Assembly (NCBI GenBank): GCA_964443885.1
Contig: CAYUES010000001.1
Location: forward strand, 4,949 to 68,948
Direction of reading: 5' to 3'
Length of the DNA: 64,000 bases
Source: an uncultured Pseudomonadales bacterium
GTDB taxonomy: Bacteria; Patescibacteriota; Microgenomatia; UBA1400; PJMF01
The notes below the pieces were generated by a model, which made no database searches, had not been told where the DNA came from, and worked only from the letters and a program-made list of their open reading frames with translations. Within the stretch, counting starts at the first letter, position 1, and each line of letters opens with the position of its first letter. The translations under genes were made by a program, and so were the position numbers. Below, in pieces: positions 10,844 through 63,970 of this stretch.

Positions 10844-11443
10844 ATGCTAAAACCCACCCTCATTCAGATCTCAACCAAGACCGGTGACACAGGTGAAAGC
10901 GGTTTGGCCAGTGGTCACCGCTTAGCCAAAGATGCCTTGGTTTTTGAGGTGGTCGGAACCCTCGATGAGCTTAATAGCTGGCTGGGAGTGGTCCTTACTC
11001 AGTATGAACCACTGCATATCACGGCTTTGCACGACAAAAATAATAAAAAGTTGATTGAAAACCTTTATCACATCCAAAACACTCTTTTTTACCTCGGAGC
11101 TGAGATTGCAGGCGCGCCCAAGACCAAGCTCGAAAATACAGAATTAAAGTCACTGGAAGCATGGTCTGACGGTCTTCAACAGCACATGGCAGCCAATTGG
11201 ACGACCCAATTTTTGCTTCCCGGCGGTACACAACTGGGTGCATGGTTGGATGTGACTCGAACGGTCTGTCGACGTTGCGAACGTGTGCTAATTTCGTACA
11301 GTCGCGAGGTCGCGGTACGGCCACTACTTTTGCAGTACCTCAATCGCCTTTCTGACTACTTATATGTGATGCGTTGTTATGTCAATCAAGAGCTCTCGTA
11401 TCAAGAGAAACCTTTTAATTCAGCCCAAAAAGTGGTAAAGTAA
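10844..11443 (+). CDS. PduO-type ATP:cob(I)alamin adenosyltransferase family protein (MMAB-like)
   Basis: ISTKTGDTGESGLASGHRLAKDALVFEVVGTLDELNSWLG matches the PF01923 N-terminal signature (TKTGDxGxT...DEL). Confidence 0.75.
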   Translation: MLKPTLIQISTKTGDTGESGLASGHRLAKDALVFEVVGTLDELNSWLGVVLTQYEPLHITALHDKNNKKLIENLYHIQNTLFYLGAEIAGAPKTKLENTELKSLEAWSDGLQQHMAANWTTQFLLPGGTQLGAWLDVTRTVCRRCERVLISYSREVAVRPLLLQYLNRLSDYLYVMRCYVNQELSYQEKPFNSAQKVVK

Positions 11444-22945: not shown

Positions 22946-23031
22946 GCCGAGGTGCTGAAATTGGTAGACAGGCTGGACTTAGAATCCAGTGCCCTTCAAA
23001 CGGCGTGCAGGTTCGATTCCTGTCCTCGGCA
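22946..23031 (+). tRNA. tRNA-Leu (anticodon TAG), type II long variable arm, no encoded CCA
   Basis: Acceptor GCCGAGG/CCTCGGC, anticodon stem CTGGA/TCCAG with loop CTTAGAA, variable arm, TTCGATT T-loop. Confidence 0.85.
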
Positions 23032-23050
23032 CAATCTCATTTTAAGCACT

Positions 23051-23073
23051 AAAAAACCCCGCTTGTGGCGGGG
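23051..23073 (-). terminator. Intrinsic terminator (hairpin CCCCGC-TTGTG-GCGGGG plus U-tract on minus strand), probably bidirectional
   Basis: Perfect 6-bp GC stem at 23057-23073. On the minus strand it is followed by TTTTTT (complement of 23051-23056). Lies downstream of minus gene 23188..23886 and of tRNA-Leu. Confidence 0.7.
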
Positions 23074-23187
23074 TGCTTTAAGTTCAGAACGGCATTCCGG
23101 TGAGGAGTGTCCTTCTGAATTACTACTACTATATCAAATTACTATAAGTCTGTCAATAGTGATCATACTAGAACATAAATATGTCAA

Positions 23188-23886
23188 TTATTGATTATTT
23201 TGAGTACTAGGATTTTCCTCGGTAAACTCAAGTAAATCGGCATCGGTTTTGAGTTCTCTCCCGAGTGCTCGGTCATCGTAGCGCATCTCGGCCATCCATT
23301 GATTGACACTAGCTGCCCAACTGCCATTACTTCCAGGCGTATATTTCCGCATGATCTGCTCTGGAGTGACTAATCCAATATCCAGGTAGTTTTTCTTGAG
23401 AATGCCTGCTGCAGCGGTAAAGTTTTCCCGATATGTTTCGAATCCCCAGGTACCGCGCGCGTGAATTCCTAGACCCAAACAGTTGTGCGACTCTGGTGGG
23501 ATAACTTTACACAAGTTGCTCTCTTGCATTGCAATGGCTGGAAGGAGTCGAAAATCAATGCCTTGTTCGTCAGCCAGCGTCACTAAAAACTGGGCAAACT
23601 CAGGATCTTCGTCTAAAATCGGCGAGTTATGACGCTCCAAAAAATTATGAACCAAGATTACGCGGGCATCCCCTACTTCTGGTTGGGCTTCAATCTGTGG
23701 ATTACTGCTCTCGGCCGGCCGAGTTGGGCCATCAGAAAGTACCATTGCACCGCCTTGCGGCCAGGGAATCGAAAACTTGGTTGACATAAAATATCCGGTG
23801 TCCAAGTAAAATGCCATCGCCACACTTGCAAAGATAGTTGCAGTTGTTCCAAAGAGCCATAAAACTGCTGAAAGAAGCTTTTTCAT
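23188..23886 (-). CDS. Membrane-anchored lytic transglycosylase-like (SLT-domain-like) cell-wall hydrolase
   Basis: N-terminal TM. LLPAIAMQESNLCKVIPPESHNCLGLGIHA resembles SLT family 1 catalytic region (ES...GLMQ). Confidence 0.5.
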   Translation of the reverse strand: MKKLLSAVLWLFGTTATIFASVAMAFYLDTGYFMSTKFSIPWPQGGAMVLSDGPTRPAESSNPQIEAQPEVGDARVILVHNFLERHNSPILDEDPEFAQFLVTLADEQGIDFRLLPAIAMQESNLCKVIPPESHNCLGLGIHARGTWGFETYRENFTAAAGILKKNYLDIGLVTPEQIMRKYTPGSNGSWAASVNQWMAEMRYDDRALGRELKTDADLLEFTEENPSTQNNQ

Positions 23887-32122: not shown

Positions 32123-32199
32123 TGGTGAGTCGGGAGGGACTCGAACCCTCGACATTTTGCTTAAGAGGCAAACGCTCTAACCAACTGAGCTACCGACCC
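32123..32199 (-). tRNA. tRNA-Lys (anticodon CTT), CCA encoded
   Basis: Reverse complement folds: acceptor GGGTCGG/CCGACTC, D-arm GCTCAGTTGGTTAGAGC, anticodon stem TTTGC/GCAAA with loop CTCTTAA, T-arm GAGGGTTCGAGTCCCTC, then ACCA. Confidence 0.85.
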
Positions 32200-32241
32200 A
32201 TTTTGTTCAACGTGATATTTTACCACGCGATAATTTTACTG

Positions 32242-32313
32242 TGCACCCAGCGGGAATCGAACCCACACAACTTGTTCCGAAGACAAGTGCCCTATCCGTT
32301 AGGCTATGGGTGC
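32242..32313 (-). tRNA. tRNA-Arg (anticodon TCG), no encoded CCA
   Basis: Reverse complement: acceptor GCACCCA/TGGGTGC, anticodon stem CTTGT/ACAAG with loop CTTCGGA, T-loop TTCGATT. Confidence 0.8.
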
Positions 32314-32516
32314 ATAGTCGCCTGCAAATGATATCACATGAGCAAGCTGTAACTATCCTGGATTATACCAACTTTCCTCAAGTATCGCATCACACAGAAC
32401 ACGAGTCGTACCAAAAGTCAAAATCGCACACAGAACCAAGGATTAAAAAGCACGGTGTTTCCAAGTTTTCTCCTACTCCCAAAATTGATCATAAAGGTCT
32501 ATACTCCAGAGGTAAT

Positions 32517-33206
32517 ATGAGTTCCTATTACGAATTAGTCAACAAAACTTTTAATCTTTCCCACCTTCGCGAGTACTTGCACGACAAATTTTCTGTTAAC
32601 GAGCAATCGTTCATTAATCCATTTATCACCGTGGCGCGTGAGCCAGGCAGTGGTGGCGCACCAATCGCCAAGGCTGTTGCCGAGAAGCTCGGCTTTGAGT
32701 TTATCGATGATCAAATTATCGAGGAAATCGCCCGCTCTACCAAACGTCGCAAGGCAGTCATTAAAGAAATTGATGAAAAAAGCCGCACCCGCATCGAAGA
32801 CGTGGTCCACTCGCTGGTGAATATCGAGTATTTAGACGAAGAAACGTATATTTCCGAGTTGGTACGCAGTATTCTCTCGTATGCGCACAAAGGCCGCTGT
32901 GTGATTCTAGGCCGTGGTGCCAACTTTATTACGCCATTTGCCAAAGGGTTGCATGTCAGTATCACCGCTCCGTATGAAGTTCGCGTCGAGCGGGCGATGC
33001 ACTATGAAGGTCTTTCTGAAGAGCAAGCCAAGGAAGTTATCAAAAAAGTTGAGGATGAACGGACAGACTTTGTAAAACAGTACTTTCGCAAAAATTTAAG
33101 TAAACGTAATGTCTTTGACATGACGTTAAACACCCACTACTTTACGGTACCCCAAGCCCGGGACGTGATCGTTGAAGCATTTCATCAAAAATTTGCGTCG
33201 CGGTAA
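32517..33206 (+). CDS. Cytidylate kinase-like family protein (PF13189-like P-loop protein)
   Basis: ITVAREPGSGGAPIAKAVAEKLGFEFIDDQIIEE resembles cytidylate-kinase-like P-loop region. ATG 32517 with GAGGT SD. The track ORF 5' extension (32241) runs through tRNA-Arg and is rejected. Confidence 0.6.
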   Translation: MSSYYELVNKTFNLSHLREYLHDKFSVNEQSFINPFITVAREPGSGGAPIAKAVAEKLGFEFIDDQIIEEIARSTKRRKAVIKEIDEKSRTRIEDVVHSLVNIEYLDEETYISELVRSILSYAHKGRCVILGRGANFITPFAKGLHVSITAPYEVRVERAMHYEGLSEEQAKEVIKKVEDERTDFVKQYFRKNLSKRNVFDMTLNTHYFTVPQARDVIVEAFHQKFASR

Positions 33207-33319
33207 GCCTGCCGTCAATTTTCATAGAAGAAAAGATTACTTAATTTCTCGCTCTACTAGATCTGCCAGAATTCAGTCTTTTGCGGTACAATAAGCCCTT
33301 ACTGTTTCGATGGTAACGT

Positions 33320-33403
33320 GCCGAAATGGCGGAACTGGTAGACGCGCACGCTTCAGGAGCGTGTGGGAGCAATCCCATGGAGGTTCGAGTCCTCTTTTCG
33401 GCA
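33320..33403 (+). tRNA. tRNA-Leu (anticodon CAG), type II
   Basis: Acceptor GCCGAAA/TTTCGGC, anticodon stem CACGC/GCGTG with loop TTCAGGA, long variable arm. Confidence 0.85.
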
Positions 33404-33428
33404 CAGGCTGGTATAATACAGTCGTAAC

Positions 33429-33510
33429 GCCCGGGTGGTGAAATGGTATACACGTACGCTTGAGGTGCGTATGCCGCAAGGTGTGGAGGTTCAACTCCTC
33501 TCCCGGGCAC
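33429..33510 (+). tRNA. tRNA-Leu (anticodon GAG), type II
   Basis: Acceptor GCCCGGG/CCCGGGC, anticodon stem TACGC/GCGTA with loop TTGAGGT, long variable arm. Confidence 0.85.
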
Positions 33511-33557
33511 AAGTAGTACACTGCGGAAAAATAATTCGCAGTTATAATCACTATATT

Positions 33558-33631
33558 GGACGCTTAGCTCAGTTGGTTAGAGCACTGCGTTTACATCGCA
33601 GGTGTCGGGGGTTCGAGTCCCTCAGCGTCCA
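33558..33631 (+). tRNA. tRNA-Val (anticodon TAC)
   Basis: Acceptor GGACGCT/AGCGTCC, D-arm GCTCAGTTGGTTAGAGC, anticodon stem CTGCG/CGCAG with loop TTTACAT. Confidence 0.85.
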
Positions 33632-33670
33632 CAAGTATTTGAAAATACGCTACAATACTGTAGTATTCGA

Positions 33671-33743
33671 GCCAAGCTAGCCAAGTCGGTCACGGCGCAT
33701 GTCTGAAAAACATGAGATTGAGGTTCGATTCCTCAGCTTGGCA
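33671..33743 (+). tRNA. tRNA-Phe (anticodon GAA)
   Basis: Acceptor GCCAAGC/GCTTGGC, anticodon stem CATGT/ACATG with loop CTGAAAA, T-loop TTCGATT. Confidence 0.8.
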
Positions 33744-33775
33744 CATTCAATATAGGTATCCACTACTTGAATGTG

Positions 33776-36643
33776 TTACTTACCCCAAGAAAAAAGATTC
33801 TTAAAAAACTTCATTAGTTTACCAAGTAGTGAAAGCTCCTCGCCATCTGCCGATGTCTCATCGTCTGCAGTTGTTTGAGTATCGGTAGTATCTGATTTTT
33901 TGTTGGTTGTAGATTTGCTATTGGTAGAAGTACGCTCTGTAAGCGTTTCATCATCAGCATCACTACTTTCATCCAGCTCTTCACCAAAACCATCATCTGC
34001 AGAATTTGACTCAGCATACGAAACCAATTGATTGGTGTGCGAAGTCAGTGTACTGCTCCACTCGCCTGGAGCACAGCCATTTCCAGCCCGAATCGCAAAT
34101 CTATAGGTAGCTTGAGGCTCCAAACTTTTGACAGTGAATTCTTGCACACCGTTGCTAGCAGCAGTAAACTCGACTGCATGCTCACCCAGATTTTCTTTGC
34201 CGTATTCAAGTAAGTAGTGGTCGGCATTGTTGTTGACAGGCACAAAGTAAATCGTTGCTTCACTGCCCTTTCGCTCGATAGAAAAAAGGGTCGGCGCGAC
34301 AGCTGGTTTGAAAAACGAGCAGACTGCCTCGGTAATTTTTTGCGAAACTGAAGAACTCGAGCTTTGGGAAGACGCAGCTGGCGTGGCTGTCGGAGTTGGG
34401 GTTGGTGTTGGAGTTGGGCAGTCCCCTTCTGTGGTAACTGTTCTCACCGACGACTCAGCAGTCGCCTCATAGGCATCGGTGCTGACAACTTGATAGTGAT
34501 ACTCTGTACAAGCAGTGAGGCCGCTCAGTTCTACCGTGTGCGAGGTGACGCGTGGAGCGGTATCAGTTTCAGCAGTGGCCGTGCCAAGCGAGCTGGTTAA
34601 GCCGTAGTTTACCTGGCTAGAAGCAGCGCGGGAAGTTGTCCAGGTAAGTTCTACAGTTGTACCCGTTACGGTAGCGTTTATTTCACTCAGTACTGGATCT
34701 TCACCAGTGGAAAGTTGGGTAGTTGCGGTATTAGAAAGTACAGTGTTATCGCGTGCTAGGAGATAACTATAAATTTCTTCGGGTGAAGCCACCCAAATTA
34801 CGTTGGTACCATCTGCTCCATATTCATCATTTGCGTGTTGGGCCACTTGTAAAAGTGCCGCTTCTTTATTGCCATGAGTTAAGGTGTTGTACCAAAAATT
34901 GCGGGTAGTTGTACTATTGGTATTCATCCAGTCAATAATTGCAATTGAGTCGGCTGGATCAACTTCAATGCCGAGGTCACGGCCGATTTTAACGGTATCT
35001 GAGTCTACTGCATCAGCAGATTGTCCAGCTGCCGAGTAGTTGGCAGCACCAGAATTAATAATCATCAAGCCATTGCCCCCAGACTGATTGAACTGGACTT
35101 CAGTCGTGGTATTGGTGCGGTGACTTACAATGAATGGGTCGTAGTCTGCCAAGAAACAAGGTGCTGCAAAACCAATCAGTTTGTATGTGGGTACGCTTGA
35201 TTCAGCAATAATACTTTTTAATCTATTGTACCCATCTAAAATATCAGTTTCCCAGTCGTCTCCCGGTGGGGCGCAGTTTGAGTACCAACCATGATTTCCA
35301 ATCGCCCAACCCATAGCCAGCAACTCCAGAATCCGTGGCTTATCAGCGATCCAGTCTTCTTGGCGAGTATCATTGACTAACTCAGCGATAATATTAACGC
35401 CCCCTGTCCAGCCAAAGCTAGTCATCAGCGCGATTTGTTCATCTAAATAGACGTTGTCATCCATGCTATGACTCCATGCAAATTTTTTGCCGTCTTTGAG
35501 CGGTGCTTTGCCAACAGCAAAACTACCCACATTTTGTGGATTCTTCACCAAGACACGGGCTGTATCGCCGCTGCCAGCAAAATAAACAATGCCCGTGGCA
35601 ATATTATGTGTATATGAAGTGGCAACTCCATCGATGTAGACATTTACTAAGGTTGAACTACCAATAGTGACTTGATAGGTGACGGTTCGCCAATAAATAT
35701 CGGGAATGCCAGAATCATCAATGTCAAAGTCAATCGCGTAGTAAATCGGATTTTCCACGACATTAACGGTGACGGTACCAGTATCGGTGTTAGCGGCAGG
35801 ATCACTAAGGGTGTAGGTAAAGGTGTCACTGCCCACATAGTCAGCTGTTGGAGTGTAGAGAATTTGATTATCTACAACTTGGGCTGTTCCATGGGCGGGC
35901 GTACCTACCCCAGTAACTGTCAGGGCGCCAGACTCAGGATCTGAGTCATTTAGCAAGACATTAAAAGTGGTGGCTGCATTCGTTTCGAAAGAATCATCTA
36001 CAGCGACCGGTGGTAAGTTAATCTCTTCGTAGGTAATAACTAAAGTGGGCTTGGGTTCACCACCACTATAGTCACCAGTGATGAACTGTCGATTGGAAAA
36101 AACTTCTGATCCATTGTCTCCAATCCAGATCATAATGCTGTCGTTGTAGTCCCAATCTGGGTGATCAACGAGTGCTTGAACTAACGCAGTCAGATCTGGT
36201 GAAACGGCAGTTTCGCCAAAGCCTTGATTAGGAACAGAGTTCCAGTCTACGGTAGTCAGAACGAGGTCGCTGGCTCGGGATACAAATTCAGCATAGTTTG
36301 AAGGAGCGGTAACGTCTGGAGAGTCTACCGCTCCAATCGTAACACTCACGGAGTTGCCTCCACTGCCAAAGTACGTTAACTCAAGGCTGGCATTAGAAAT
36401 AGTGGCACCAGGAGCAATTTCTAAACCTGAAAAAAGCAGTAAGTGTTCAACATCTGGACCACCAAAGACCATCAAACTGTCGTCACTATCAAACGTATCA
36501 GGCGCTTCAGCCCAAGTATCGGCAGTACCGGTGCCAACGATGATCTCTGTCGTCGTTTGTGCTTGGACAGTAGAAACAGCAAAATAAGAGAAAAAAATTG
36601 CTAGTAGGAGGTAGCTGAATAATCGGCGCATGACAAAACTCAA
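33776..36643 (-). CDS. Large secreted/surface protein with cadherin-like Ig domain, fibronectin-III-like domain(s), Pro-Thr linker and acidic Ser/Thr-rich C-terminal tail
   Basis: Signal peptide MRRLFSYLLLAIFFSYFAVSTVQA. VAVDDSFETNAATTFNVLLNDSDPESGALTV...DTFTYTLSD (cadherin-like/VCBS pattern). VELTWTTSRAASSQVNYGLTS...CTEYHYQVVSTD (Fn3-like). PTPTPTPTPTATP linker. D/E/S/T-rich tail ending in amphipathic LLGKLMKFFKNLFSWGK. Confidence 0.6.
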   Translation of the reverse strand: MSFVMRRLFSYLLLAIFFSYFAVSTVQAQTTTEIIVGTGTADTWAEAPDTFDSDDSLMVFGGPDVEHLLLFSGLEIAPGATISNASLELTYFGSGGNSVSVTIGAVDSPDVTAPSNYAEFVSRASDLVLTTVDWNSVPNQGFGETAVSPDLTALVQALVDHPDWDYNDSIMIWIGDNGSEVFSNRQFITGDYSGGEPKPTLVITYEEINLPPVAVDDSFETNAATTFNVLLNDSDPESGALTVTGVGTPAHGTAQVVDNQILYTPTADYVGSDTFTYTLSDPAANTDTGTVTVNVVENPIYYAIDFDIDDSGIPDIYWRTVTYQVTIGSSTLVNVYIDGVATSYTHNIATGIVYFAGSGDTARVLVKNPQNVGSFAVGKAPLKDGKKFAWSHSMDDNVYLDEQIALMTSFGWTGGVNIIAELVNDTRQEDWIADKPRILELLAMGWAIGNHGWYSNCAPPGDDWETDILDGYNRLKSIIAESSVPTYKLIGFAAPCFLADYDPFIVSHRTNTTTEVQFNQSGGNGLMIINSGAANYSAAGQSADAVDSDTVKIGRDLGIEVDPADSIAIIDWMNTNSTTTRNFWYNTLTHGNKEAALLQVAQHANDEYGADGTNVIWVASPEEIYSYLLARDNTVLSNTATTQLSTGEDPVLSEINATVTGTTVELTWTTSRAASSQVNYGLTSSLGTATAETDTAPRVTSHTVELSGLTACTEYHYQVVSTDAYEATAESSVRTVTTEGDCPTPTPTPTPTATPAASSQSSSSSVSQKITEAVCSFFKPAVAPTLFSIERKGSEATIYFVPVNNNADHYLLEYGKENLGEHAVEFTAASNGVQEFTVKSLEPQATYRFAIRAGNGCAPGEWSSTLTSHTNQLVSYAESNSADDGFGEELDESSDADDETLTERTSTNSKSTTNKKSDTTDTQTTADDETSADGEELSLLGKLMKFFKNLFSWGK

Positions 36644-38021: not shown

Positions 38022-38094
38022 GCGGAAATAGCTCAGTTGGTAGAGCGTCTCCTTGCCAAGGAGAAGGTCGCGGGTCCGAGTCCCGTTTTCCGCT
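38022..38094 (+). tRNA. tRNA-Gly (anticodon GCC)
   Basis: Acceptor GCGGAAA/TTTCCGC, D-arm GCTCAGTTGGTAGAGC, anticodon stem TCTCC/GGAGA with loop TTGCCAA, discriminator T. Confidence 0.85.
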
Positions 38095-38218
38095 CAGTAG
38101 CAAACAATATATCCTTTCTACATATCCCCGTAACATTGTTTATTTAAAGATTGCTTTATATAATAAATATAGGATTAGGTCTTGAAAATCTCTTTGCTGA
38201 GACCTATAATAATAGTAT

Positions 38219-42753: not shown

Positions 42754-42840
42754 GCCGCTACTATAGCAGGCTTGTGTAAAGATACGGTAATATTTTGTGA
42801 GAGATGAATCTTTAGCTGGCGGTTAGGGATATTTCTAGTG

Positions 42841-42911
42841 ATGCCTCGCTTGGATTCGAACCAAGATTAACGGCTTCAAAGGCCGCTGTCCTGCCATTGG
42901 ACGACGAGGCA
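42841..42911 (-). tRNA. tRNA-Gln (anticodon TTG)
   Basis: Reverse complement: acceptor TGCCTCG/CGAGGCA (U1-A72 as in bacterial tRNA-Gln), D-stem GTCC/GGAC, anticodon stem GCGGC/GCCGT with loop CTTTGAA, T-arm CTTGGTTCGAATCCAAG. Confidence 0.8.
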
Positions 42912-43604: not shown

Positions 43605-45158
43605 TTAGTCGCGCAAATCGCGGTTAATACTCCCAATCAGTTGTGGACCTTGATAAATCATGCCTGTGATAAGTTGAACTAAGTCTGCTCCCAAGGCTAT
43701 TTTTTGGCGCGCGTCTTCGGCAGAGAAAATGCCCCCAGTCCCAATAATCGTAAAGCGATTTTTATAGTGTTTTTTTGTCAAAGCAATCAATCTATTGGAA
43801 CGCTCAAAAGTAGGCTTGCCACTCAAGTTACCCTTGCGTTTTTGCCATTCTTTGGCGTCTTCGGTAGCGACGGCTGGATTAGTTTTGTCTTTTGTGAGGT
43901 TGCCCAAAATCACGCCAGCAGTTTTGTGTTTTGCGATGACCGCGAGCAGTTGCAGGCTTTCTTTTTCTGATTGATCAATCGGCATTTTGACATAGATCGG
44001 CTTGGTGACTTTCAGTTTATCAAGTGCAGTCAGTAGTATTTCCAACCTGTTTGTCGTGGTGAATGGTTCGCCACCAAACGTATTCGGGCAACTAATATTC
44101 AACTCATAGTAAGAATGACCGACTTTTGATTTCTCAAATAATCGAAAACAAGTAATAATGTCGGTAATCTGCTCTTTGTCAGTTTCGTAGGCAGCATTGG
44201 TGCTCCCGATACTAATTCCAACCGGGATTTTGAACTGTAACGGAGTAAGTTTTTTGATAATTTCCTGTGCGCCGATGTTTTTAAGACCTTTATTAACGAG
44301 CAGTGCTTTGGAGTTCGGGAAACGCCCAAGCATTGGCGAAGTATTGCCGTCATAAGAATGCAGTGTCACCGTACCAACGGTGTGCCAACCAAACCCGACC
44401 GAAGGCAGAATTTGTGTTAAGTCGGCGTTGTAGTCAAAGCCCGCTGATAAGCCAACTGGATTAGGAAAAACAATGCCATCACGTTTGGTGGCGAGCGCAG
44501 GGTCATAGTACGCAAAGAGTGCGCTATTGATGGCTTGAGTTATCGAGAAGTTGCCAAAAAATGCACCCAACTTTGTCATCGTATCGTGAACGAGCTCAGG
44601 ATCGAAAAGAAAGAAAATTGGCTTTAAAACAGTGGTGTACAAAAAACTAATCACCGAGTGAAAGACAGTCTTGGTGCTGTATCCAGATTTTTGGCTGTAG
44701 AGCGCAACGTAGGTTTGGGTAGTGATAAATAACAGCGTGCTGACAGCCGCAGAAATTAAACAGTACGAACACCACGCTTTAATCACCACTCCCATTAGAA
44801 ATACTAAGTAAAATGAAAAAAGTAAGCCACCGATCGTAATTAGTTGCAGTAAATCCAGTGGTGAGGTTTTACGAATGAAGGCAGACTTGGAAGTTTTGAA
44901 AAAAGAACTTTTTTTGAAGTCTAGTTCCAGAAAATGCATAACAGCGAGCACAAAAACAGTTAGGTAGTAACCCAAACCGAGTGCTGAAAGTGGAAGCGGT
45001 CCAATCTGGGCGTACGGACTACTTAAAACAGTTTCGCATTGAAAACCTGGCGTACACGGTGGAATCACCCCCGCAACCTTTTCATAGGTTAAGTAACTGG
45101 CATCGGCAATGCCAATCAAAGATAAAACGATCAGCAGCAAAGACATGAAAACATTCAT
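43605..45158 (-). CDS. pyrD: Fusion protein: N-terminal VKOR (vitamin K epoxide reductase) membrane domain (aa 1 to about 160; nt 44679..45158) plus class-2 dihydroorotate dehydrogenase (PyrD; nt 43605..44678)
   Basis: VKOR half: LTYEKVAGVIPPCTPGFQCETVLSSPYAQIGPLPLSALGLGYY (loop Cys pair plus TVLSSPYA motif) and AWCSYCLISA (TM CxxC). DHODH half: FLFDPELVHDTM (class-2 N-terminal helices, cf. E. coli LFQLDPERAHEFT), FPNPVGLSAGFD, GFGWHTVGTVT, NISCPNT, GNLSGKP, IIGTGGIFS, GADLVQLITG. Single uninterrupted ORF from ATG 45158. Confidence 0.8.
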   Translation of the reverse strand: MNVFMSLLLIVLSLIGIADASYLTYEKVAGVIPPCTPGFQCETVLSSPYAQIGPLPLSALGLGYYLTVFVLAVMHFLELDFKKSSFFKTSKSAFIRKTSPLDLLQLITIGGLLFSFYLVFLMGVVIKAWCSYCLISAAVSTLLFITTQTYVALYSQKSGYSTKTVFHSVISFLYTTVLKPIFFLFDPELVHDTMTKLGAFFGNFSITQAINSALFAYYDPALATKRDGIVFPNPVGLSAGFDYNADLTQILPSVGFGWHTVGTVTLHSYDGNTSPMLGRFPNSKALLVNKGLKNIGAQEIIKKLTPLQFKIPVGISIGSTNAAYETDKEQITDIITCFRLFEKSKVGHSYYELNISCPNTFGGEPFTTTNRLEILLTALDKLKVTKPIYVKMPIDQSEKESLQLLAVIAKHKTAGVILGNLTKDKTNPAVATEDAKEWQKRKGNLSGKPTFERSNRLIALTKKHYKNRFTIIGTGGIFSAEDARQKIALGADLVQLITGMIYQGPQLIGSINRDLRD

Positions 45159-45178: not shown

Positions 45179-45988
45179 CTACTCCTTTTGCAATACAAGG
45201 TAGGTATTGGATGTGCCCTCTTTACCATCGGCTTGGTAGGTTTTCAGTTGTTTTAGGCCTGACATGTGAGCTAGCTCCTCGATCTCACTTTGTGTAAATG
45301 AGTGGCAGTAGCGCGCAAGGTTGGTATGCTCTTTCCAGCCCAGTAGGAAGTCATTTTCTTCGAGTTGATCGGTTGCTACTCCAAACTGTGTAGGATCAAG
45401 CGATTTATGGTGGTACCGTTCAAACTCTGCAAAACGCCAAAAACTTACGGCTAGGATTCCGCCAGCGGAAAGTTTGTCTGCACACTTTTTAATACAGAGC
45501 TGGCGAAGTTCTTGTGTTGGAATATGATGCAACACACCAAACGAAGTAATGAGATCAAAATTATTTTCGTCTATTTGAGAAGAAAAAGTATCGTCTAAAA
45601 GTGAGGTGATGAGATCAAAATATAGAACTTTATTCCCCGCACCCTCTACTTTCACAGACTGAAGTAGCACTTCAGCTTCAGAAAGTAAGGCTTGGTTGCT
45701 ATCAGTACCAAGATATGCCAAGTCGAAGTCGGTACTTTCTTGTAGGAAAGTTAAAAATCTGCCGTTGCCGCAGCCAATGTCTAAAACTGCGATTTCTTTC
45801 TTTTGAAGTTCAGCGGTAATAATTGGAGTCAAGACGTTCCAACCTGCCCAGGACTGTTGGCGTGTTTGGCTAAACGACTCACTTACTTGTGTATAAAAAG
45901 CTTGTGTTAGCTGATTTAGTTTTTGAATAAGACTCTGTTGCATTTTCCTATTGTAACCCAGCGATCTTGGTTTTGTTTGGCTCTTCAA
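45179..45988 (-). CDS. Class I SAM-dependent methyltransferase
   Basis: VLDIGCGNGRFLTFL (motif I). Rossmann pattern with acidic residue at end of beta2. Confidence 0.7.
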   Translation of the reverse strand: MKSQTKPRSLGYNRKMQQSLIQKLNQLTQAFYTQVSESFSQTRQQSWAGWNVLTPIITAELQKKEIAVLDIGCGNGRFLTFLQESTDFDLAYLGTDSNQALLSEAEVLLQSVKVEGAGNKVLYFDLITSLLDDTFSSQIDENNFDLITSFGVLHHIPTQELRQLCIKKCADKLSAGGILAVSFWRFAEFERYHHKSLDPTQFGVATDQLEENDFLLGWKEHTNLARYCHSFTQSEIEELAHMSGLKQLKTYQADGKEGTSNTYLVLQKE

Positions 45989-46055: not shown

Positions 46056-47873
46056 ATGGTACTTGAAGAACCTCGGACAGAAAATCAAAAACGAATGACG
46101 GAACTGCTGCAAAAAATAGATGCAGTAGCCAGTTTGTCACATACAGAGTACGCCAAACTCGTCAAGAAATTTCCTCAAACAGATGGTGATGTCTACTCAA
46201 AAGAAGATATTATTCGTGCCTACCGCGAGTTACAAACCACTGTTGGTTTCAAAAGTACCCCGGCCGAGTTTATTGCTAAAGTCCGCATGAAACCAATGCG
46301 CACGCAATCTGGAGTGGCGCCAATTACTGTTTTGACCAAACCATTCCCCTGCCCTGGCAAGTGTATTTTTTGTCCAAATGACATCAGAATGCCCAAGAGT
46401 TACTTGAGTGATGAACCAGGTGCGCAGCGCGCTGAGCGAAACTACTTTGATCCATACTTGCAAACATATAATCGCCTGCAGGCGCTGCATAATATTGGCC
46501 ATGAAGTTGATAAGGCAGAGATTATAGTTTTGGGTGGCACTTGGTCGTATTATCCTGAAGCGTATCAGATTTGGTTTATTAAGGAATGTTTTAAAGCGCT
46601 TAATGATTTTGGACTGCGTGATGATCGGCTGGTGGTAGAAAGACGGTATGCCGACATGCAAGCGACATTGGAAAAAAACTTTCAGCATGCACCAACCAAC
46701 AGTCCAACCGAGAACGAACACAACTTGGAAAAGCACAAAATTGACGGCACTGTATTAGATAAAAGTTACAACCAAACTGTTTCGCAGTTGTACGTCGCAC
46801 CCGAGCGACTCGGTGGTTTTGATGAGTATCAACAAGCCAGCTGGGATGAACTTATAGCCGAGCAACTAGTAAACGAAACAGCCCAAGTTCGCAACGTGGG
46901 ACTCGTGATTGAAACTCGGCCTGATAATATTTCTGAAGCTGAAGTGTTGCGTGTTCGCCGCCTGGGTTGTACCAAAACGCAGATTGGGATTCAAAGTTTA
47001 CAAGATGAAGTTTTGACCAAAAACAAACGTGGACATGATGTGGCTGCAACTCGTAAAGCTTTTCGATTACTGCGCCGAGCTGGCTTTAAAATTCATGCGC
47101 ACTGGATGGCAAATTTGTATGGTTCTAGTGTTGAGCTAGATAAAAAAGACTTTAGTGAACTTTTCAGTGATCCTGATTTTATGCCAGATGAACTGAAAGT
47201 CTATCCATGTTCATTAATTGGTAGTGCCGAGTTAATGCAGTACTACAAAAAAGGTTTGTGGAAACCGTACTCACACGAGGAACTCTTGGATGTCGTCACT
47301 TTCGCAATCAAAAGTACGCCTGAGTACTGTCGGTTAACACGCATTATTCGTGACATTCCTTCTACTGACATTGTGGTGGGAAATAAAATGACCAACTTCA
47401 GACAAGTCGCTGAAGAAGCCTTGAAAAAAGATGGTGAACACTCCAACGATATTCGTGAACGTGAAATTAGAGATCAAAAATATACGCGTGAGCAGCTGGT
47501 TCTGAAAGAAACTCACTACGCTACTTCAGTTAGTGAAGAGTATTTTTTGCAGTTTGTGATCCCCGAGACGAATCAAATTATTGGGTTCCTACGCTTGAGC
47601 CTGCCTAAAGAGGCGGCTTTCATCCCTGAACTGGCAACTGCAGCTTTAATTCGAGAAGTCCACGTTTATGGTGACTTGGTGAAACTGGGAACTCGCACCT
47701 CAGATACTGCGCAACATCGTGGGCTTGGCTCAGAGTTATTAGTACGAGCACAGGAAATTGCAAAAGAAGCTGAGTTTAAGAAACTTACAGTCATTTCTGC
47801 GATTGGCACGCGCGAGTACTACCGCAAACGCGGCTTTAGTGATGGTGAGTTGTATCAACACCTCGAGCTGTAG
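46056..47873 (+). CDS. Elp3-family radical SAM/GNAT protein (bacterial homolog of Elongator catalytic subunit; tRNA U34 cm5 modification)
   Basis: FPCPGKCIFCPND (Cys cluster), YFDPYLQTYNRLQALHNIGHEVDKAEIIVLGGTWSYYP (Elp3 signature), C-terminal GNAT IREVHVYGDLVKLG...HRGLGSELL...VISAIGTREYYRKRGF. 605 aa. TATAAT 8 nt upstream of ATG. Confidence 0.8.
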   Translation: MVLEEPRTENQKRMTELLQKIDAVASLSHTEYAKLVKKFPQTDGDVYSKEDIIRAYRELQTTVGFKSTPAEFIAKVRMKPMRTQSGVAPITVLTKPFPCPGKCIFCPNDIRMPKSYLSDEPGAQRAERNYFDPYLQTYNRLQALHNIGHEVDKAEIIVLGGTWSYYPEAYQIWFIKECFKALNDFGLRDDRLVVERRYADMQATLEKNFQHAPTNSPTENEHNLEKHKIDGTVLDKSYNQTVSQLYVAPERLGGFDEYQQASWDELIAEQLVNETAQVRNVGLVIETRPDNISEAEVLRVRRLGCTKTQIGIQSLQDEVLTKNKRGHDVAATRKAFRLLRRAGFKIHAHWMANLYGSSVELDKKDFSELFSDPDFMPDELKVYPCSLIGSAELMQYYKKGLWKPYSHEELLDVVTFAIKSTPEYCRLTRIIRDIPSTDIVVGNKMTNFRQVAEEALKKDGEHSNDIREREIRDQKYTREQLVLKETHYATSVSEEYFLQFVIPETNQIIGFLRLSLPKEAAFIPELATAALIREVHVYGDLVKLGTRTSDTAQHRGLGSELLVRAQEIAKEAEFKKLTVISAIGTREYYRKRGFSDGELYQHLEL

Positions 47874-53841: not shown

Positions 53842-54576
53842 TCACTCATTTTTTGGCAAAACAAACCCCAAGGTCAAGTAGACAGTTTTTCCTCTCATTC
53901 TTTCAAATTGAGGGTTTTCTCCTAAAAACTCTTCAGTAGGAGTGATTTCTTGGTAATTTTGTAGTTGTAATCCTGCCTCTATAAATGGCTGTAAGTAACT
54001 ACGAGTTGGTCTAAAATAAAATGGAAACATTTTTCCTGCCATTTCTATTTCACCTTTTACGTCTTCTCCATAGGTAGTGAGCCCAGAGTATCGTGAATTT
54101 GCACGCAACATTTTTTGTAAATATGGATACATGGGATGCACAACTGTAAAAACAAACTTGCCACCGGGTTTGAGAACACGAGCAACTTCTTTTCCTAAAC
54201 CAGACAAATTTTCAACATACATTAAAACAAAGCGAGAAATCGCAATATCAAAAGACTGATCTGCAAAAGGAAGTGGTTCATTCAAATCAACAAGTTGAGT
54301 TGGTAAATCAGGATGTTTTTCTCTAGCTTTTTCTAGTTGGACCTCAGAGCCGTCTACTGCGGTTACAATAGCACCAGCGCTTATAAGTTGTACTGCTACA
54401 AACCCATCTCCACAACCTAAATCTACAACTGTTCTTCCCGCTACTTCATCAATCAACCTCTTAAAAACAGGTAGTTCTGCAGCTTCTTCAAAGGTCAGAT
54501 CAAATTTTTTTGTTTCTTTTGCTTCGTGAAAATTTTGTGCTCCACCATTCCACTTTTCTGCATCTTTTATTGTCAT
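53842..54576 (-). CDS. Class I SAM-dependent methyltransferase
   Basis: VVDLGCGDGFVAVQL (motif I), AISRFVLMYV, Methyltransf_11-like. Confidence 0.7.
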   Translation of the reverse strand: MTIKDAEKWNGGAQNFHEAKETKKFDLTFEEAAELPVFKRLIDEVAGRTVVDLGCGDGFVAVQLISAGAIVTAVDGSEVQLEKAREKHPDLPTQLVDLNEPLPFADQSFDIAISRFVLMYVENLSGLGKEVARVLKPGGKFVFTVVHPMYPYLQKMLRANSRYSGLTTYGEDVKGEIEMAGKMFPFYFRPTRSYLQPFIEAGLQLQNYQEITPTEEFLGENPQFERMRGKTVYLTLGFVLPKNE

Positions 54577-54644
54577 TGAAAGTATTATACAGGATGTAAA
54601 TCACTGTATCTGCTGATGAAAATGGAAAATTGATGATACAAGTG

Positions 54645-54719
54645 TCGGGGAGACAGGACTCGAACCTGCGACCTCACGCTCCCAAAGCGCGCATTCTAGC
54701 CAACTGAACTACTCCCCGA
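54645..54719 (-). tRNA. tRNA-Pro (anticodon TGG)
   Basis: Reverse complement: acceptor CGGGGAG/CTCCCCG, anticodon stem CGCGC/GCGTG with loop TTTGGGA, T-arm GCAGGTTCGAGTCCTGT. Confidence 0.8.
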
Positions 54720-54793
54720 TTGTTACGATATTCTATCCCAAGTATGTGTCTTGAGCCAGTGATGATTATCACTTTTGGAATTATTGAACAACG

Positions 54794-54878
54794 TGCCTCG
54801 AGAGGGAATCGAACCCACACGACTTTTGAGGTCATCAGATTTTAAGTCTGACGCGTCTACCAATTCCGCCATCGAGGC
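54794..54878 (-). tRNA. tRNA-Leu (anticodon TAA), type II
   Basis: Reverse complement: acceptor GCCTCGA/TCGAGGC, anticodon stem TCAGA/TCTGA with loop CTTAAAA, long variable arm, T-loop TTCGATT. Confidence 0.8.
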
Positions 54879-56217: not shown

Positions 56218-56290
56218 GCGGGTGTAGCTCAATGGTCAGAGCTCCAGTTTTCCAAACTGGTGACGAGGGTTCGATTCCCTTCACCCGCTC
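56218..56290 (+). tRNA. tRNA-Gly (anticodon TCC)
   Basis: Acceptor GCGGGTG/CACCCGC, anticodon stem CCAGT/ACTGG with loop TTTCCAA, T-loop TTCGATT, discriminator T. Confidence 0.85.
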
Positions 56291-62363: not shown

Positions 62364-63635
62364 TTACCCATGTTTCTGGATGTGTAACTCACGCTCTATC
62401 TCGAGTAGACGGTTGTATTTAGCTACACGCTCGCCTCTTGTTGGCCCCACCTTTATGTAAATGGCACCAACTGCTACGGCTAGATCAACCAGTGCAGTAT
62501 CGTTTGTTTCCCCACCACCACGATGTGACGGAATCGTACTCATGCCATGTTGCTTCGCCAGCATGCAGGTCTCGATAGTTTCAGATACACTACCGATTTG
62601 ATTGAGCTTAATTAGGATACTCGAGATTGCTTGGAGTTCAATAGCTTTCTGTAGTCTCTCCACACTCGTAACGGTGACGTCATCACCAATCAACGGGACG
62701 TGGTGCGCATCGCACATCTGTTTGCAGACTTGCCAGCTTGCCCAGTCATCTTCATGCAGCGGATCTTCTAAAGTCACAATTGGATATTTTTCTAATAATG
62801 TCTGGAAGTACTCAATCACTTCAGTTGGTGAAAGTGTTCGGTTTTCCAAAGCAAAGTGATACATGCCATCTTTGTAAAACTCATTGGCAGCAGCATCAAT
62901 CGAGAAACCCACGTCTACACCAGCCTGATACCCTGCTCTTTCAATTGCCTGGAGCATATATGAAAATGGTGCTTCGTTGGTAGTAATACCGCTTGGTGCA
63001 AAAGCGCCTTCATTCCCAACATTGGTAGATAAGTTATTTTCTTGCAAGATCTTAGCCAACGCATGGTAACATTCCAACATAATTCGTACACTCTCTGTAC
63101 GGTAACCTTGCTTTAATACACTAAAGCAGTATTCTTGCAGATCAGTTGAGTGGTCAGCATGTTTCCCGCCTTCAATTACGACAGCCATTGGTTGGGGTAG
63201 CACTTCAAATGTTGCGCCGGTCTGAAAGGTGTCACGCAGATGCAGGTACAAGGGTTTTTTCTGTGAGTTGGCGGCGGCACGGGCGGTGGCGACCGAGACA
63301 GCTAAGATGGCATTGCCACCCAAGCGTGATTTTTGCGGTGTCCCATCCAACTCAATCATTGTTTTATCGATTAGTTTCTGATTATTGGCATCCAAACCTA
63401 GCAAATGCGGCGCAATTTCTTCGTGGACGTTTCGAATTGCTTGCAGCATGCCTTTGCCGTTGTATCGTGCTTGATCTCCATCTACCAAGACCGATGCCTC
63501 GTGTGAGCCAGCTGAAGCCCCATATGGTACTGATGCGAGGCCAACACTGCCATCTTCAACCGTGACTTTGACTTCAATTGAAGGATACCCTCCCGAAGCA
63601 ATAATTTCGTAACACTGGATAGCGGTAATCTGCAT
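62364..63635 (-). CDS. Enolase (copy 2, divergent paralog)
   Basis: MQITAIQCYEIIASGGYPSIEVKV...SHRGGGETNDTALVDLAVAVGAIYIKVGPTRGERVAKYNRL. Full-length enolase fold. Shares the ETND/RGER variants with copy 1. Confidence 0.8.
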   Translation of the reverse strand: MQITAIQCYEIIASGGYPSIEVKVTVEDGSVGLASVPYGASAGSHEASVLVDGDQARYNGKGMLQAIRNVHEEIAPHLLGLDANNQKLIDKTMIELDGTPQKSRLGGNAILAVSVATARAAANSQKKPLYLHLRDTFQTGATFEVLPQPMAVVIEGGKHADHSTDLQEYCFSVLKQGYRTESVRIMLECYHALAKILQENNLSTNVGNEGAFAPSGITTNEAPFSYMLQAIERAGYQAGVDVGFSIDAAANEFYKDGMYHFALENRTLSPTEVIEYFQTLLEKYPIVTLEDPLHEDDWASWQVCKQMCDAHHVPLIGDDVTVTSVERLQKAIELQAISSILIKLNQIGSVSETIETCMLAKQHGMSTIPSHRGGGETNDTALVDLAVAVGAIYIKVGPTRGERVAKYNRLLEIERELHIQKHG

Positions 63636-63753: not shown

Positions 63754-63825
63754 GCGCCTATAGTTCAACGGATAGAACAGGGGCCTTCTAAGCCTCAAAT
63801 CTGGGTTCGATTCCCCGTGGGCGCA
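63754..63825 (+). tRNA. tRNA-Arg (anticodon TCT)
   Basis: Acceptor GCGCCTA/TGGGCGC (one G-U), D-arm AGTTCAACGGATAGAAC, anticodon stem GGGGC/GCCTC with loop CTTCTAA, T-loop TTCGATT. T-stem pairing imperfect in my hand-fold. Confidence 0.7.
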
Positions 63826-63891
63826 CAGTTGATTGATAGTTTGTTGATAACGGTGCCGAATAAAACAAAATACGGTATAATTGCAACTCTT

Positions 63892-63970
63892 GGTGGTATT
63901 AGCTCAGTTGGTTTAGAGCGCGTCCCTGTGAAGGACGAGGTCGCCGGTTCGAGCCCGGTATACCACCCCA
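63892..63970 (+). tRNA. tRNA-His (anticodon GTG) with encoded G-1 and CCA
   Basis: G-1 at 63892 opposite discriminator C. Acceptor GTGGTAT/ATACCAC, anticodon stem CGTCC/GGACG with loop CTGTGAA, T-arm GCCGGTTCGAGCCCGGT, CCA at 63968-63970. Confidence 0.85.

Follow-up and report, generated by a model that had tools for sequence, protein, structure and literature searches.

A vitamin K epoxide reductase domain fused to a class-2-type dihydroorotate dehydrogenase in Patescibacteria

The fusion gene and its distribution

The window analysed here, a 64-kb stretch of Patescibacteria DNA, encodes on its minus strand (43605..45158) a protein of 517 aa in which a VKOR (vitamin K epoxide reductase) domain runs directly into a dihydroorotate dehydrogenase (DHODH, PyrD) built on the class-2 scaffold. 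Far from being rare, this fusion is the usual form of PyrD in a large lineage of Patescibacteria. We propose, with about even confidence, that it is a bifunctional integral-membrane protein whose two competent quinone-reducing modules work in parallel and share membrane and quinone.

The first-pass annotation had claimed a single uninterrupted 517-aa ORF. The frame, opening at an ATG and closed by a TAA, is indeed continuous at exactly these coordinates; the coding strand is the minus strand, and the plus strand carries many stops across 43605-45158. An identical protein (P0001) is present in a public collection. The same annotation had raised the possibility of a missed stop, a frameshift or an assembly join between the two halves. 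Neither a stop nor a frameshift was present, the reading frame being unbroken in the window. A join at the junction was ruled out, since the same unbroken architecture recurs in independent assemblies: both domains were present in all of the best 120 relatives (90%-identity clusters, 54-100% identity to the query) and were fused in 29 species genomes of GTDB, which belong to Microgenomates-type Patescibacteria. Altogether, the fused architecture was found in more than 100 independent assemblies (NCBI, JGI, ENA, Logan), some on contigs of more than 1 Mb. An assembly or annotation artefact, be it an overlooked stop, a frameshift or a chimera of two genes, could draw on the related record L021, in which the halves are in different frames, and on a database member with a garbled C-terminus (P0121). 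It is already refuted by the continuous frame of the window and the identical architecture in these assemblies, and its probability is negligible.

In public databases these proteins go by no other name than 'dihydroorotate dehydrogenase' or 'DHODH/uncharacterized membrane protein', an annotation that conceals the VKOR half. To the first-pass annotation, no described example of the architecture was known. This holds for the searchable literature, where no paper on a VKOR-DHODH architecture was found with searches on VKOR, DHODH/pyrD, CPR/Patescibacteria, quinone and fusion. It does not hold for the databases, in which the fusion is common under its DHODH-only names; that the architecture might prove common and annotated, which the first-pass annotation had listed as a refutation, is thus in part the case.

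The fusion is retained in two clades, A and B, which share 42-45% identity and have different gene neighbourhoods. A neighbour-joining tree settled neither the deep order of these two clades and the unfused group nor a single versus a double origin of the fusion. Other arrangements were also observed. At L054/L055, VKOR and PyrD are separate genes with an ATGA 4-bp overlap and the same synteny, split at the junction turn. In L021, as mentioned, the two halves lie in different frames. On the P0122 contig, VKOR stands alone at the equivalent locus, and about 20 Parcubacteria-type genomes carry PyrD alone, without VKOR and with the same Cys-type base (see below). As each also exists alone, each module can function without its partner. 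Finally, in Kerfeldbacteria-type Patescibacteria a VKOR with intact cysteines is fused to RdgB/Ham1 (P0207 and P0281-P0286; 7 clusters). A 455-aa variant (L033) was considered as carrying an alternative anchor and rejected, its N-terminal extension being an Arg/Ser-rich read-through with no TM segment.

The VKOR and DHODH modules

The N-terminal VKOR domain proposed from the letters of the sequence was recovered as a match to Pfam PF07884 over residues 8-147 (44718..45137, minus strand), at 88 bits (E 7.7e-25) against a gathering cut-off of 27.5 and over profile positions 2-133 of 134. It also aligns to the Synechococcus VKOR structures 4nv6 and 3kp9. The cysteine positions given earlier were correct: C35 and C41 lie in PPCTPGFQCETVLSS and C130/C133 in AWCSYC, and in the Synechococcus VKOR of known structure the two pairs fall on C50/C56 and C130/C133. 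The loop redox motif (45018..45056, minus strand) comprises C35 (45054-45056), C41 (45036-45038) and the family Ser, S47 (45018-45020), which align to FCTGDGGCDLVLSS of Synechococcus VKOR. The active-site CXXC, C130-S-Y-C133 (44760..44771, minus strand), lies at the start of TM4, at its outer end, and aligns to CMYC of 4nv6. The protein is not of the VKOR-thioredoxin type (Synechococcus/plant LTO1), as no thioredoxin-family match was obtained with Pfam or NCBIfam and DHODH helices follow TM4. Judged by its sequence, the VKOR domain appears to be catalytically intact.

One could alternatively regard the VKOR as a degenerate, inactive four-helix bundle retained as an anchor, like the lone TM helix at the N-terminus of the mitochondrial class-2 enzyme. 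Eukaryotic class-2 DHODHs do have an N-terminal membrane anchor ahead of the tunnel helices (PMC8520639), and hydropathy revealed no TM segment in the unfused Patescibacteria PyrDs. However, an inert anchor would not keep extracytoplasmic cysteines, and C35, C41, C130 and C133, together with S47, were invariant in 120 fused homologues, the cysteines being retained also in the divergent clade B. In addition, the nearest relatives of the domain are free-standing VKORs of 140-180 aa (35-55% identity). A dead anchor is therefore highly improbable.

The remainder of the protein had been described as a complete class-2 PyrD. Its TIM-barrel catalytic domain (residues 222-516; 43611..44495, minus strand) matched Pfam DHO_dh PF01180 at 161 bits (E 4.9e-47) and gave Foldseek TM-scores of 0.88-0.90 (normalised to target length) against the DHODHs of E. 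coli, H. pylori and M. tuberculosis. Between VKOR and barrel lies a class-2 N-terminal helical domain (residues 160-215; 44514..44681, minus strand), a putative quinone tunnel with a conserved D186-P-E and an invariant H191, recognised by alignment to E. coli PyrD and by AlphaFold (AF2), which placed helices at residues 160-182, 187-202 and 205-215. The motif likeness claimed for these helices was reproduced: FLFDPELVHDT pairs with LFQLDPERAHEFT of E. coli in the alignment, where query residue 178 corresponds to E. coli residue 6. Y174, F183, H191, R279 and the barrel motifs were invariant in 120 homologues. Two NCBIfam models of quinone-dependent DHODH were matched within residues 173-516, each just above its cut-off (NF003652, 269.5 against 267; TIGR01036, 201.1 against 200).

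The catalytic base departs from this class. Instead of the Ser of class 2 (E. coli S175 in NISSPNT), the codon at 44088..44090 (minus strand) encodes a Cys, Cys357 in NISCPNT, as judged by alignment to 1f76/7t5k, and a Cys base is a class-1 trait. Cys357 was invariant in 120 homologues, and a Cys was also found in 49 of 49 GTDB loci, fused or unfused. Class-1 DHODH models were nevertheless not matched, their NCBIfam scores of 39-59 bits lying below the cut-offs (269-330); the protein carries the N-terminal helical domain that the soluble class-1 enzymes lack, and matches to class-1 DHODHs in the PDB had E values of 1e-8 or weaker versus 1e-37 for class 2. Thus, the class-2 assignment stands as regards the tunnel helices and the class-2 models, whereas the enzyme is not canonical, with Cys357 replacing Ser. 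This defines, among bacteria, a clade of DHODHs that combine the class-2 scaffold with a Cys base, in parallel with respiration-independent fungal enzymes, and throughout this bacterial lineage the class-1/class-2 "Cys versus Ser" rule does not hold. To judge by the conserved tunnel domain, membrane quinone would be the electron acceptor of the DHODH; for Cys-type fungal DHODs, acceptors other than membrane quinone are possible (PMC8520639).

Membrane arrangement and gene neighbourhood

AF2 folded the protein as one confident body (pLDDT 95.5, pTM 0.92), in which four TM helices are followed by the DHODH tunnel helices. TM helix 1 (residues 2-28; 45075..45155) coincides with a hydropathy peak at residues 3-21; TM helix 2 (residues 57-76; 44931..44990) and TM helix 3 (residues 100-126; 44781..44861), the latter preceded by a Lys/Arg-rich loop (residues 77-100), were located by both AF2 and hydropathy, and TM helix 4 (residues 131-154; 44697..44768) by AF2, all on the minus strand. 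The four-TM bundle of the VKOR family is therefore present in the model, with pLDDT mostly above 90 and in agreement with hydropathy. TM4 is connected to the DHODH helices by a five-residue turn, SQKSG (residues 155-159; 44682..44696, minus strand), which is the fusion junction in the AF2 model. The spacing from CXXC to DPE was 56 residues in 70 of the 92 motif-matching sequences (131 examined) and 49 residues in clade B. Such a confident single-body model, together with a fixed linker, could equally well reflect a true functional interface between the modules.

Loop 77-100 contains 6 K/R versus 2 D/E and the segment after TM4 contains 2 versus 0, while the Cys-pair loop is neutral. Because of this excess of K/R over D/E, loop 77-100 and the post-TM4 segment were assigned to the cytoplasm, an orientation in which the active site of VKOR would face outward and PyrD would be cytoplasmic.

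A class-I SAM methyltransferase gene (45179..45988, minus strand) lies 20 bp upstream of the fusion gene and is co-directional with it. Its directly upstream position is conserved in 17 loci, and in L054 and the P0122 locus it shares 4 bp with the start of VKOR; it is probably in the same operon as the fusion gene. The methyltransferase is divergent from Elp3, a pairing seen in 16-17 loci, and its best PDB match was the tRNA methyltransferase Trm9. Methyltransferase and Elp3 probably form a tRNA U34 modification pair, and the former is probably context, outside the redox function. A role as quinone methylase was rejected (NCBIfam, 30 bits with UbiG and 19 bits with UbiE, against cut-offs of 103 and 216). 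Neighbours in clade A are Elp3, the methyltransferase and VIT1; those in clade B are NUDIX, an aminotransferase and a weak, sub-threshold DUF998 match. No pyrimidine, quinone or oxidase genes were conserved beside the fusion among the neighbour clusters of 45 loci. Similarly, no exported thioredoxin-fold partner (DsbA/MdbA/thioredoxin) was found within 10 kb of any fused gene, either by this clustering or by a CXXC-plus-signal motif screen of all loci and the window, and the 64-kb window contained no quinone-synthesis gene or quinol oxidase. A cluster of 162-aa neighbours considered as a redoxin turned out to be DUF4112. A promoter/terminator scan gave no signal above chance.

This lack of conserved redox or pyrimidine genes speaks for a neutral or regulatory fusion, in which adjacent VKOR and PyrD genes were joined by loss of a stop codon, with co-expression as the only consequence and no shared substrate logic. 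Such a fusion would be tolerated because PyrD ends up on its correct, cytoplasmic side, and it is in line with the split form with its 4-bp overlap, with the differing frames of the L021 halves and with the VKOR-Ham1 fusion elsewhere, whose parts are chemically unrelated. It accounts less readily for a fusion kept in the best 120 clusters (90% identity) and 29 species genomes, and across two clades that have diverged to the level given above in different neighbourhoods. The linker, moreover, is nearly invariant, the inter-domain arrangement is confidently predicted by AF2, and both partners are quinone-dependent membrane enzymes. We consider a neutral fusion unlikely, if still a serious candidate.

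Proposed function and comparison with known systems

The invariance of the VKOR cysteines and Ser, of the tunnel residues and of the barrel motifs in 120 homologues argues that both modules are under purifying selection. In the parallel arrangement that we favour, the four-helix VKOR would span the membrane with both termini cytoplasmic and its two Cys pairs facing outward. It would most likely re-oxidise a separate exported thioredoxin-fold oxidoreductase (MdbA/DsbA-like) and pass the electrons to membrane quinone; MdbA-like oxidoreductases have been connected with the VKORs of CPR bacteria (PMC6744442). The five-residue turn after TM4 would lead into the amphipathic N-terminal helices of the class-2-type DHODH, which, at the cytoplasmic face, would use FMN, and Cys357 as base, to oxidise dihydroorotate to orotate and deliver its electrons to quinone entering via the helical tunnel. 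The analysis shows the identities of the domains, their conserved catalytic residues, the charge-based topology, the confidently predicted single body, the retention of the fusion and its split variant; that both modules are active as enzymes, that they use a quinone and which one, what the thiol partner outside is and what re-oxidises the quinol are inferred in this scheme. The fusion would provide a permanent membrane anchor for an otherwise peripheral DHODH and a 1:1 tie of two enzymes that rely on one and the same quinone, probably a scarce and scavenged one. CPR genomes are generally devoid of quinone synthesis and respiratory chains (PMC5113843, PMC8407418), and the host is expected neither to respire nor to make quinones. 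That anchoring, stoichiometry and a shared scarce quinone would be the advantage is a matter of conjecture, since the covalent joining of parallel reducers offers no obvious kinetic benefit.

A more ambitious scheme had been suggested earlier, with thiol/disulfide coupling or quinone recycling between the two halves. We found no support for it. As VKOR and DHODH both reduce quinone, recycling would require VKOR to run in reverse: quinol made by the DHODH would feed VKOR, and electrons would pass to the CXXC, the loop Cys pair and an extracytoplasmic disulfide or oxidant, making pyrimidine synthesis independent of respiration. Several observations speak for such a series. Fused proteins usually act in a shared pathway, and the same gene pair is also found as translationally coupled neighbours; AF2 predicts one rigid body with a linker of fixed length; and the Cys base parallels fungal class-II DHODs working without respiration (PMC8520639). 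In addition, since CPR genomes are without respiratory chains and quinone synthesis, a class-2 DHODH needs another electron sink. With potentials of about -258 mV for dihydroorotate and about -120 mV for a DsbA-type disulfide, the overall reaction would be downhill.

However, in all VKOR/DsbB enzymes characterised to our knowledge, electrons flow from thiols to quinone, the opposite direction, and the step from menaquinol (about -74 mV) to the membrane CXXC (about -200 mV in DsbB) would be uphill. The two quinone sites are also predicted on opposite membrane faces, that of VKOR near the outer face, by homology to Synechococcus VKOR, and the mouth of the DHODH tunnel at the inner face. Related genomes keep VKOR without PyrD (P0122) and, in Parcubacteria, a Cys-type PyrD without VKOR, while VKOR is also fused to the non-redox Ham1. 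Finally, the electron flux of pyrimidine synthesis would, on a rough estimate, far exceed the demand for protein disulfides. Series coupling is thus decidedly unlikely. We regard as quite improbable, too, its self-contained form, in which one scavenged, captive quinone would take electrons from cytoplasmic dihydroorotate oxidation to the VKOR cysteines facing outward, for transfer to a disulfide or oxidant outside the cell. If true, VKOR would act there as a quinol:disulfide oxidoreductase, the first reductive-direction enzyme known in the VKOR/DsbB family; in a broader version, if true, the VKOR of Patescibacteria would serve enzymes of nucleotide metabolism (DHODH, Ham1) as a platform in the membrane.

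To return to the two quinone reducers, Patescibacteria (CPR) are reportedly devoid of quinone synthesis and respiratory chains, yet a large lineage among them encodes two quinone-dependent membrane enzymes as one polypeptide, with the catalytic residues of both all conserved. A single construct can therefore address both the source and the re-oxidation of quinone in these episymbionts.

With Synechococcus VKOR-Trx (3kp9/4nv6) and actinobacterial VKOR, the latter re-oxidising MdbA/DsbA, the fusion shares the four-helix bundle, the loop Cys pair, the Ser and the CXXC at the start of TM4, which can be aligned one residue to one, and probably the outward-facing topology. In contrast to Synechococcus VKOR-Trx, it has no fifth TM helix or Trx-like domain: its cytoplasmic C-terminus continues into the DHODH, and no partner gene is found nearby. 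With E. coli PyrD (1f76, 7t5k) it shares the two-helix tunnel domain and the FMN TIM barrel, at 30% identity and a TM-score of 0.89-0.90 (target-normalised); H191 is the equivalent of E. coli H19, and H191 and R279 are conserved in the fusion. It differs by its base, Cys357 instead of Ser, by an Ile where the E. coli motif VQIYSG has its Tyr, and by being integral via VKOR, not peripheral. Mitochondrial class-2 DHODH likewise has a membrane-spanning segment just N-terminal to the tunnel helices, but this anchor is a single inert helix, whereas that of the fusion is a complete, conserved redox enzyme.

VKOR is similarly tied to a membrane enzyme in giant viruses, where it is adjacent or fused to an epoxidase-desaturase and use of the same vitamin K pool has been proposed (PMC13486548). 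There, however, the partner is proposed to consume VKOR-made quinol, in series; DHODH produces quinol, so the known directions give no VKOR-DHODH series. VKOR-RdgB/Ham1 likewise joins the cytoplasmic end of an N-terminal four-TM VKOR to an enzyme of nucleotide metabolism, although in this small family the passenger is a non-redox NTP pyrophosphatase. SjUra9, ArUra9 and DbUra9 of anaerobic fungi (PMC8520639), finally, also combine a class-2 scaffold with a Cys base in respiration-free pyrimidine synthesis, and ArUra9 has lost its N-terminal domain and uses free flavins (PMC8520639). These fungal enzymes are of independent, eukaryotic origin, whereas Patescibacteria keep the tunnel domain and the fused lineage adds VKOR to it.

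The fused gene and its catalytic base

The VKOR-PyrD gene lies on the minus strand of the window (43605-45158), where it forms a 517-aa ORF with an ATG start and a TAA stop; the plus strand of this interval contains many stops. The first-pass annotation had the exact coordinates but not the strand, and the motifs that it quoted were recovered at the residues it gave. Pfam places VKOR (PF07884) at residues 8-147 with 88 bits (cut-off 27.5) and DHO_dh (PF01180) at residues 222-516 with 161 bits. Residues 173-516 match the quinone-dependent DHODH models of NCBIfam, with narrow passes for NF003652 (269.5 vs cut-off 267) and TIGR01036 (201.1 vs cut-off 200), whereas the class-1 models, whose cut-offs are 269-330, reached just 39-59 bits.

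Alignment A1 comprises the window protein and its 119 best relatives. None of the five VKOR-family hallmark residues (C35, C41, S47, C130 and C133) varies in it. The VKOR half could be aligned directly with the Synechococcus VKOR of known structure (4nv6/3kp9), C35/C41 corresponding to its loop pair and C130/C133 to its CMYC. In the DHODH half, Y174, F183 and H191 of the N-terminal helices were fixed throughout A1, and R279 and the barrel motifs were likewise invariant. E. coli PyrD could be aligned with this half from residue 6 on (30% identity), and the catalytic base S175 (NISSPNT) of the E. coli enzyme is faced by Cys357 (NISCPNT), also invariant in A1. The window DHODH therefore has a class 2 scaffold but a catalytic base of the kind usual in class 1. 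The class 2 base is Ser as a rule, with few exceptions, and in anaerobic fungi, Cys-type class-II DHODs allow pyrimidines to be made without respiration (PMC8520639). Since NISCPN or NVSCPN was present in 49/49 GTDB loci (L005-L053), fused and free, the Cys base is, as judged by these motifs, a trait of the Patescibacteria PyrD clade and not of the fusion. These relatives make up a bacterial clade in which a class-2 DHODH scaffold is combined with a class-1-type base.

Distribution and separable variants

The window protein has 4341 relatives at E<=1e-5. Both Pfam domains were found in all of the best 120 (54-100% identity), which, where source-named, came from Patescibacteria, Pacebacteria or Woesebacteria and are called 'dihydroorotate dehydrogenase', 'quinone-dependent DHODH', 'DHODH/uncharacterized membrane protein' or 'hypothetical'. 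GTDB species genomes contributed 49 related loci. The fused form accounts for 29 of them (Pacebacteria, Woesebacteria, Roizmanbacteria, WWE3, Microgenomates and several MAGs with evidently wrong taxon labels); the other 20, from Parcubacteria-type genomes (Nomurabacteria, Yanofskybacteria, RAAC4_OD1), encode a free PyrD of about 370 aa. The fused genes fall into clade A and the divergent clade B, with 42-45% identity between them and different neighbourhoods: Elp3, a methyltransferase and VIT1 in clade A, a downstream NUDIX gene in clade B. In a phmmer search of 1.84 billion representatives with the VKOR half as query, the nearest relatives, fused proteins and fragments aside, were free-standing VKORs (140-180 aa, 35-55% identity).

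Thirteen records (L005, L007, L010, L013, L014, L016, L018, L021, L026, L028, L031, L037 and L051) are titled Methylococcaceae, Limisphaerales, Pseudomonadales, Gammaproteobacteria or Vitreimonas. All carry a Patescibacteria-type PyrD, in the VKOR-PyrD form except for L037 (free PyrD) and with L021 in two frames; several of those neighbourhood-tested display Patescibacteria synteny, and the GTDB/NCBI taxon labels look wrong. A record titled 'Candidatus Pacearchaeota archaeon' (DPANN) encodes an unfused Cys-type PyrD (L030:2799-3929, 52% identity to the window protein) that the neighbour-joining tree puts next to fused clade A; a CPR-DPANN transfer or mis-binning could account for this.

Several variants depart from the fused form. 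In two independent assemblies of identical sequence, a methyltransferase is followed by separate genes for VKOR (158 aa) and PyrD (360 aa) with an ATGA stop/start overlap (L054:1811-3366; L055:601-2156). Since this split form nests within fused clade A in the neighbour-joining tree, it suggests a secondary fission with translational coupling retained. The contig of protein cluster P0122 (JGI 3300071358) keeps the synteny Elp3, methyltransferase, VKOR, VIT1 and has a lone 169-aa VKOR between methyltransferase and VIT1, with no PyrD at this locus; an AhpC-TSA/Redoxin gene follows VIT1. At L021, the VKOR and PyrD halves occupy two frames. Outside the window, an intact VKOR is fused to the non-redox RdgB/Ham1 non-canonical NTP pyrophosphatase in a small, conserved family of seven clusters (P0207 and P0281-P0286, 57-61% identity to P0207) from Kerfeldbacteria-type genomes, one member being named Candidatus Kerfeldbacteria. 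In P0291, Ham1 is joined to a different membrane domain (PF09900). Judging from the split, lone, two-frame and VKOR-Ham1 forms, the VKOR and PyrD modules can each function alone, their association has nevertheless been kept repeatedly, and the cytoplasmic C-terminus of VKOR accepts other passenger enzymes.

Gene content of the window and quinone supply

The window looks like a Patescibacteria chromosome. It encodes 14 tRNAs, glycolytic enzymes, UvrAB, LexA and Elp3, along with numerous small proteins, either membrane proteins or unknown. The window genes scanned included none for respiration, quinone synthesis, DsbA-like proteins or the pyr pathway. According to published surveys, CPR genomes have neither electron-transport chains nor quinone synthesis, apart from occasional cyo quinol oxidases (PMC5113843, PMC8407418), and CPR VKORs are often encoded next to MdbA-like thiol-disulfide oxidoreductases with a supposed role in pilin folding (PMC6744442). 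The fused genes examined here had no such partner within 10 kb. A 244-aa methyltransferase (53842-54576, minus) scores 34.5 bits with Pfam ubiE/COQ5 (threshold 20.1) and higher, 80 bits, with the generic Methyltransf_11; it is a possible candidate for a quinone methylase, and this genome encodes two quinone-dependent domains.

Next to the fusion, a class-I methyltransferase of 269 aa (45179-45988, minus; best PDB match Yarrowia Trm9, 5cm2, E 1.3e-4) is divergent from an Elp3 radical-SAM/GNAT tRNA U34 enzyme (46056-47873, plus; TIGR01211, 484 bits). Conservation of this pair in 16-17 related loci suggests a putative bacterial Elp3/Trm9-like (m)cm5U pathway; the methyltransferase gene and the VKOR start share 4 bp in some relatives. 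Two full-length enolase paralogues (15036-16328 and 62364-63635, both minus) with only 36% mutual identity share this 64-kb stretch of a small genome. An F420-0:gamma-glutamyl ligase family gene (8997-9743, plus) and a PduO-type cobalamin adenosyltransferase family gene (10844-11443, plus) are cofactor-related and unexpected for a reduced genome. The 14 tRNA genes lie at 22946-23032, 32123-33744 (a cluster of six), 38022-38095, 42840-42911, 54644-54878, 56218-56290 and 63754-63970. Several mechanically listed ORFs (e.g. 32241-33206, 33273-33551, 22952-23194) are probably mis-started or spurious, since they begin within or overlap tRNA genes. A 955-aa protein (33776-36643, minus) combines a signal-like N-terminal segment with domains of the Big_9, cadherin-like and fibronectin-III types, which makes it a candidate episymbiont surface adhesin.

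Predicted architecture, mechanism and known systems

AlphaFold2 prediction on A1 gave a pLDDT of 95.5 and a pTM of 0.92, high for a two-domain protein, which implies a defined mutual arrangement of the modelled domains. VKOR helices were predicted at 2-28, 57-76, 100-126 and 131-154, followed by a five-residue turn, helices 160-182, 187-202 and 205-215, and the barrel. K/R outnumber D/E in loop 77-100 (6 vs 2) and after TM4 (2 vs 0), and the Cys-pair loop is neutral. Given four TM helices, and since the FMN enzyme at the C-terminus has to reside in the cytoplasm, both VKOR termini are placed inside and the redox cysteines outside, the canonical orientation. Among 131 sequences examined, the CXXC-to-DPE distance was 56 residues in 70/92 motif-pattern matches and 49 in the divergent clade, and the tether length is therefore conserved. 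By homology, the VKOR quinone pocket would lie near the outer face, a placement reportedly based on the Synechococcus VKOR of Li et al. (2010), and the DHODH tunnel mouth at the inner face.

Since both known reactions put electrons into quinone, the best-supported reading is a bifunctional protein whose two modules reduce quinone in parallel. VKOR would deliver electrons from exported thiols, and DHODH those from dihydroorotate via FMN. The VKOR half would also provide an integral anchor for an otherwise peripheral DHODH, and the fusion would keep two enzymes that use a probably scavenged quinone together at a 1:1 ratio. The first-pass annotation had proposed redox coupling or quinone recycling; either would need VKOR to run in reverse, from quinol to disulfide. 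The rigid body predicted by the model, the fixed VKOR-DHODH linker length, the gene pairing retained after fission (L054/L055) and the missing respiratory sink are in favour of such a series arrangement, and electrons would run downhill overall between dihydroorotate (about -258 mV) and a DsbA-type disulfide (about -120 mV). However, its quinol-to-disulfide step would be uphill with menaquinone (about -74 mV vs about -200 mV for a DsbB-type CXXC), and the stand-alone variants and the Ham1 fusion speak against an obligatory coupling. We consider this series reading of low probability and high value. Neither the parallel nor the series model accounts for quinol re-oxidation.

Taken together, the VKOR-PyrD fusion is real, conserved and unstudied: public databases contain many proteins of this type, for which both Pfam domains are already precomputed, and no paper on a VKOR-DHODH architecture was found in the literature searched. 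The VKOR and class-2-like DHODH parts are ordinary members of their families; what is unusual is that they are combined, and that the Cys base runs through an entire bacterial clade. As precedents, VKOR-Trx fusions, mitochondrial DHODH with its single-TM anchor, the Cys-type fungal class-II DHODs and the VKOR modules of giant viruses (PMC13486548) come closest.
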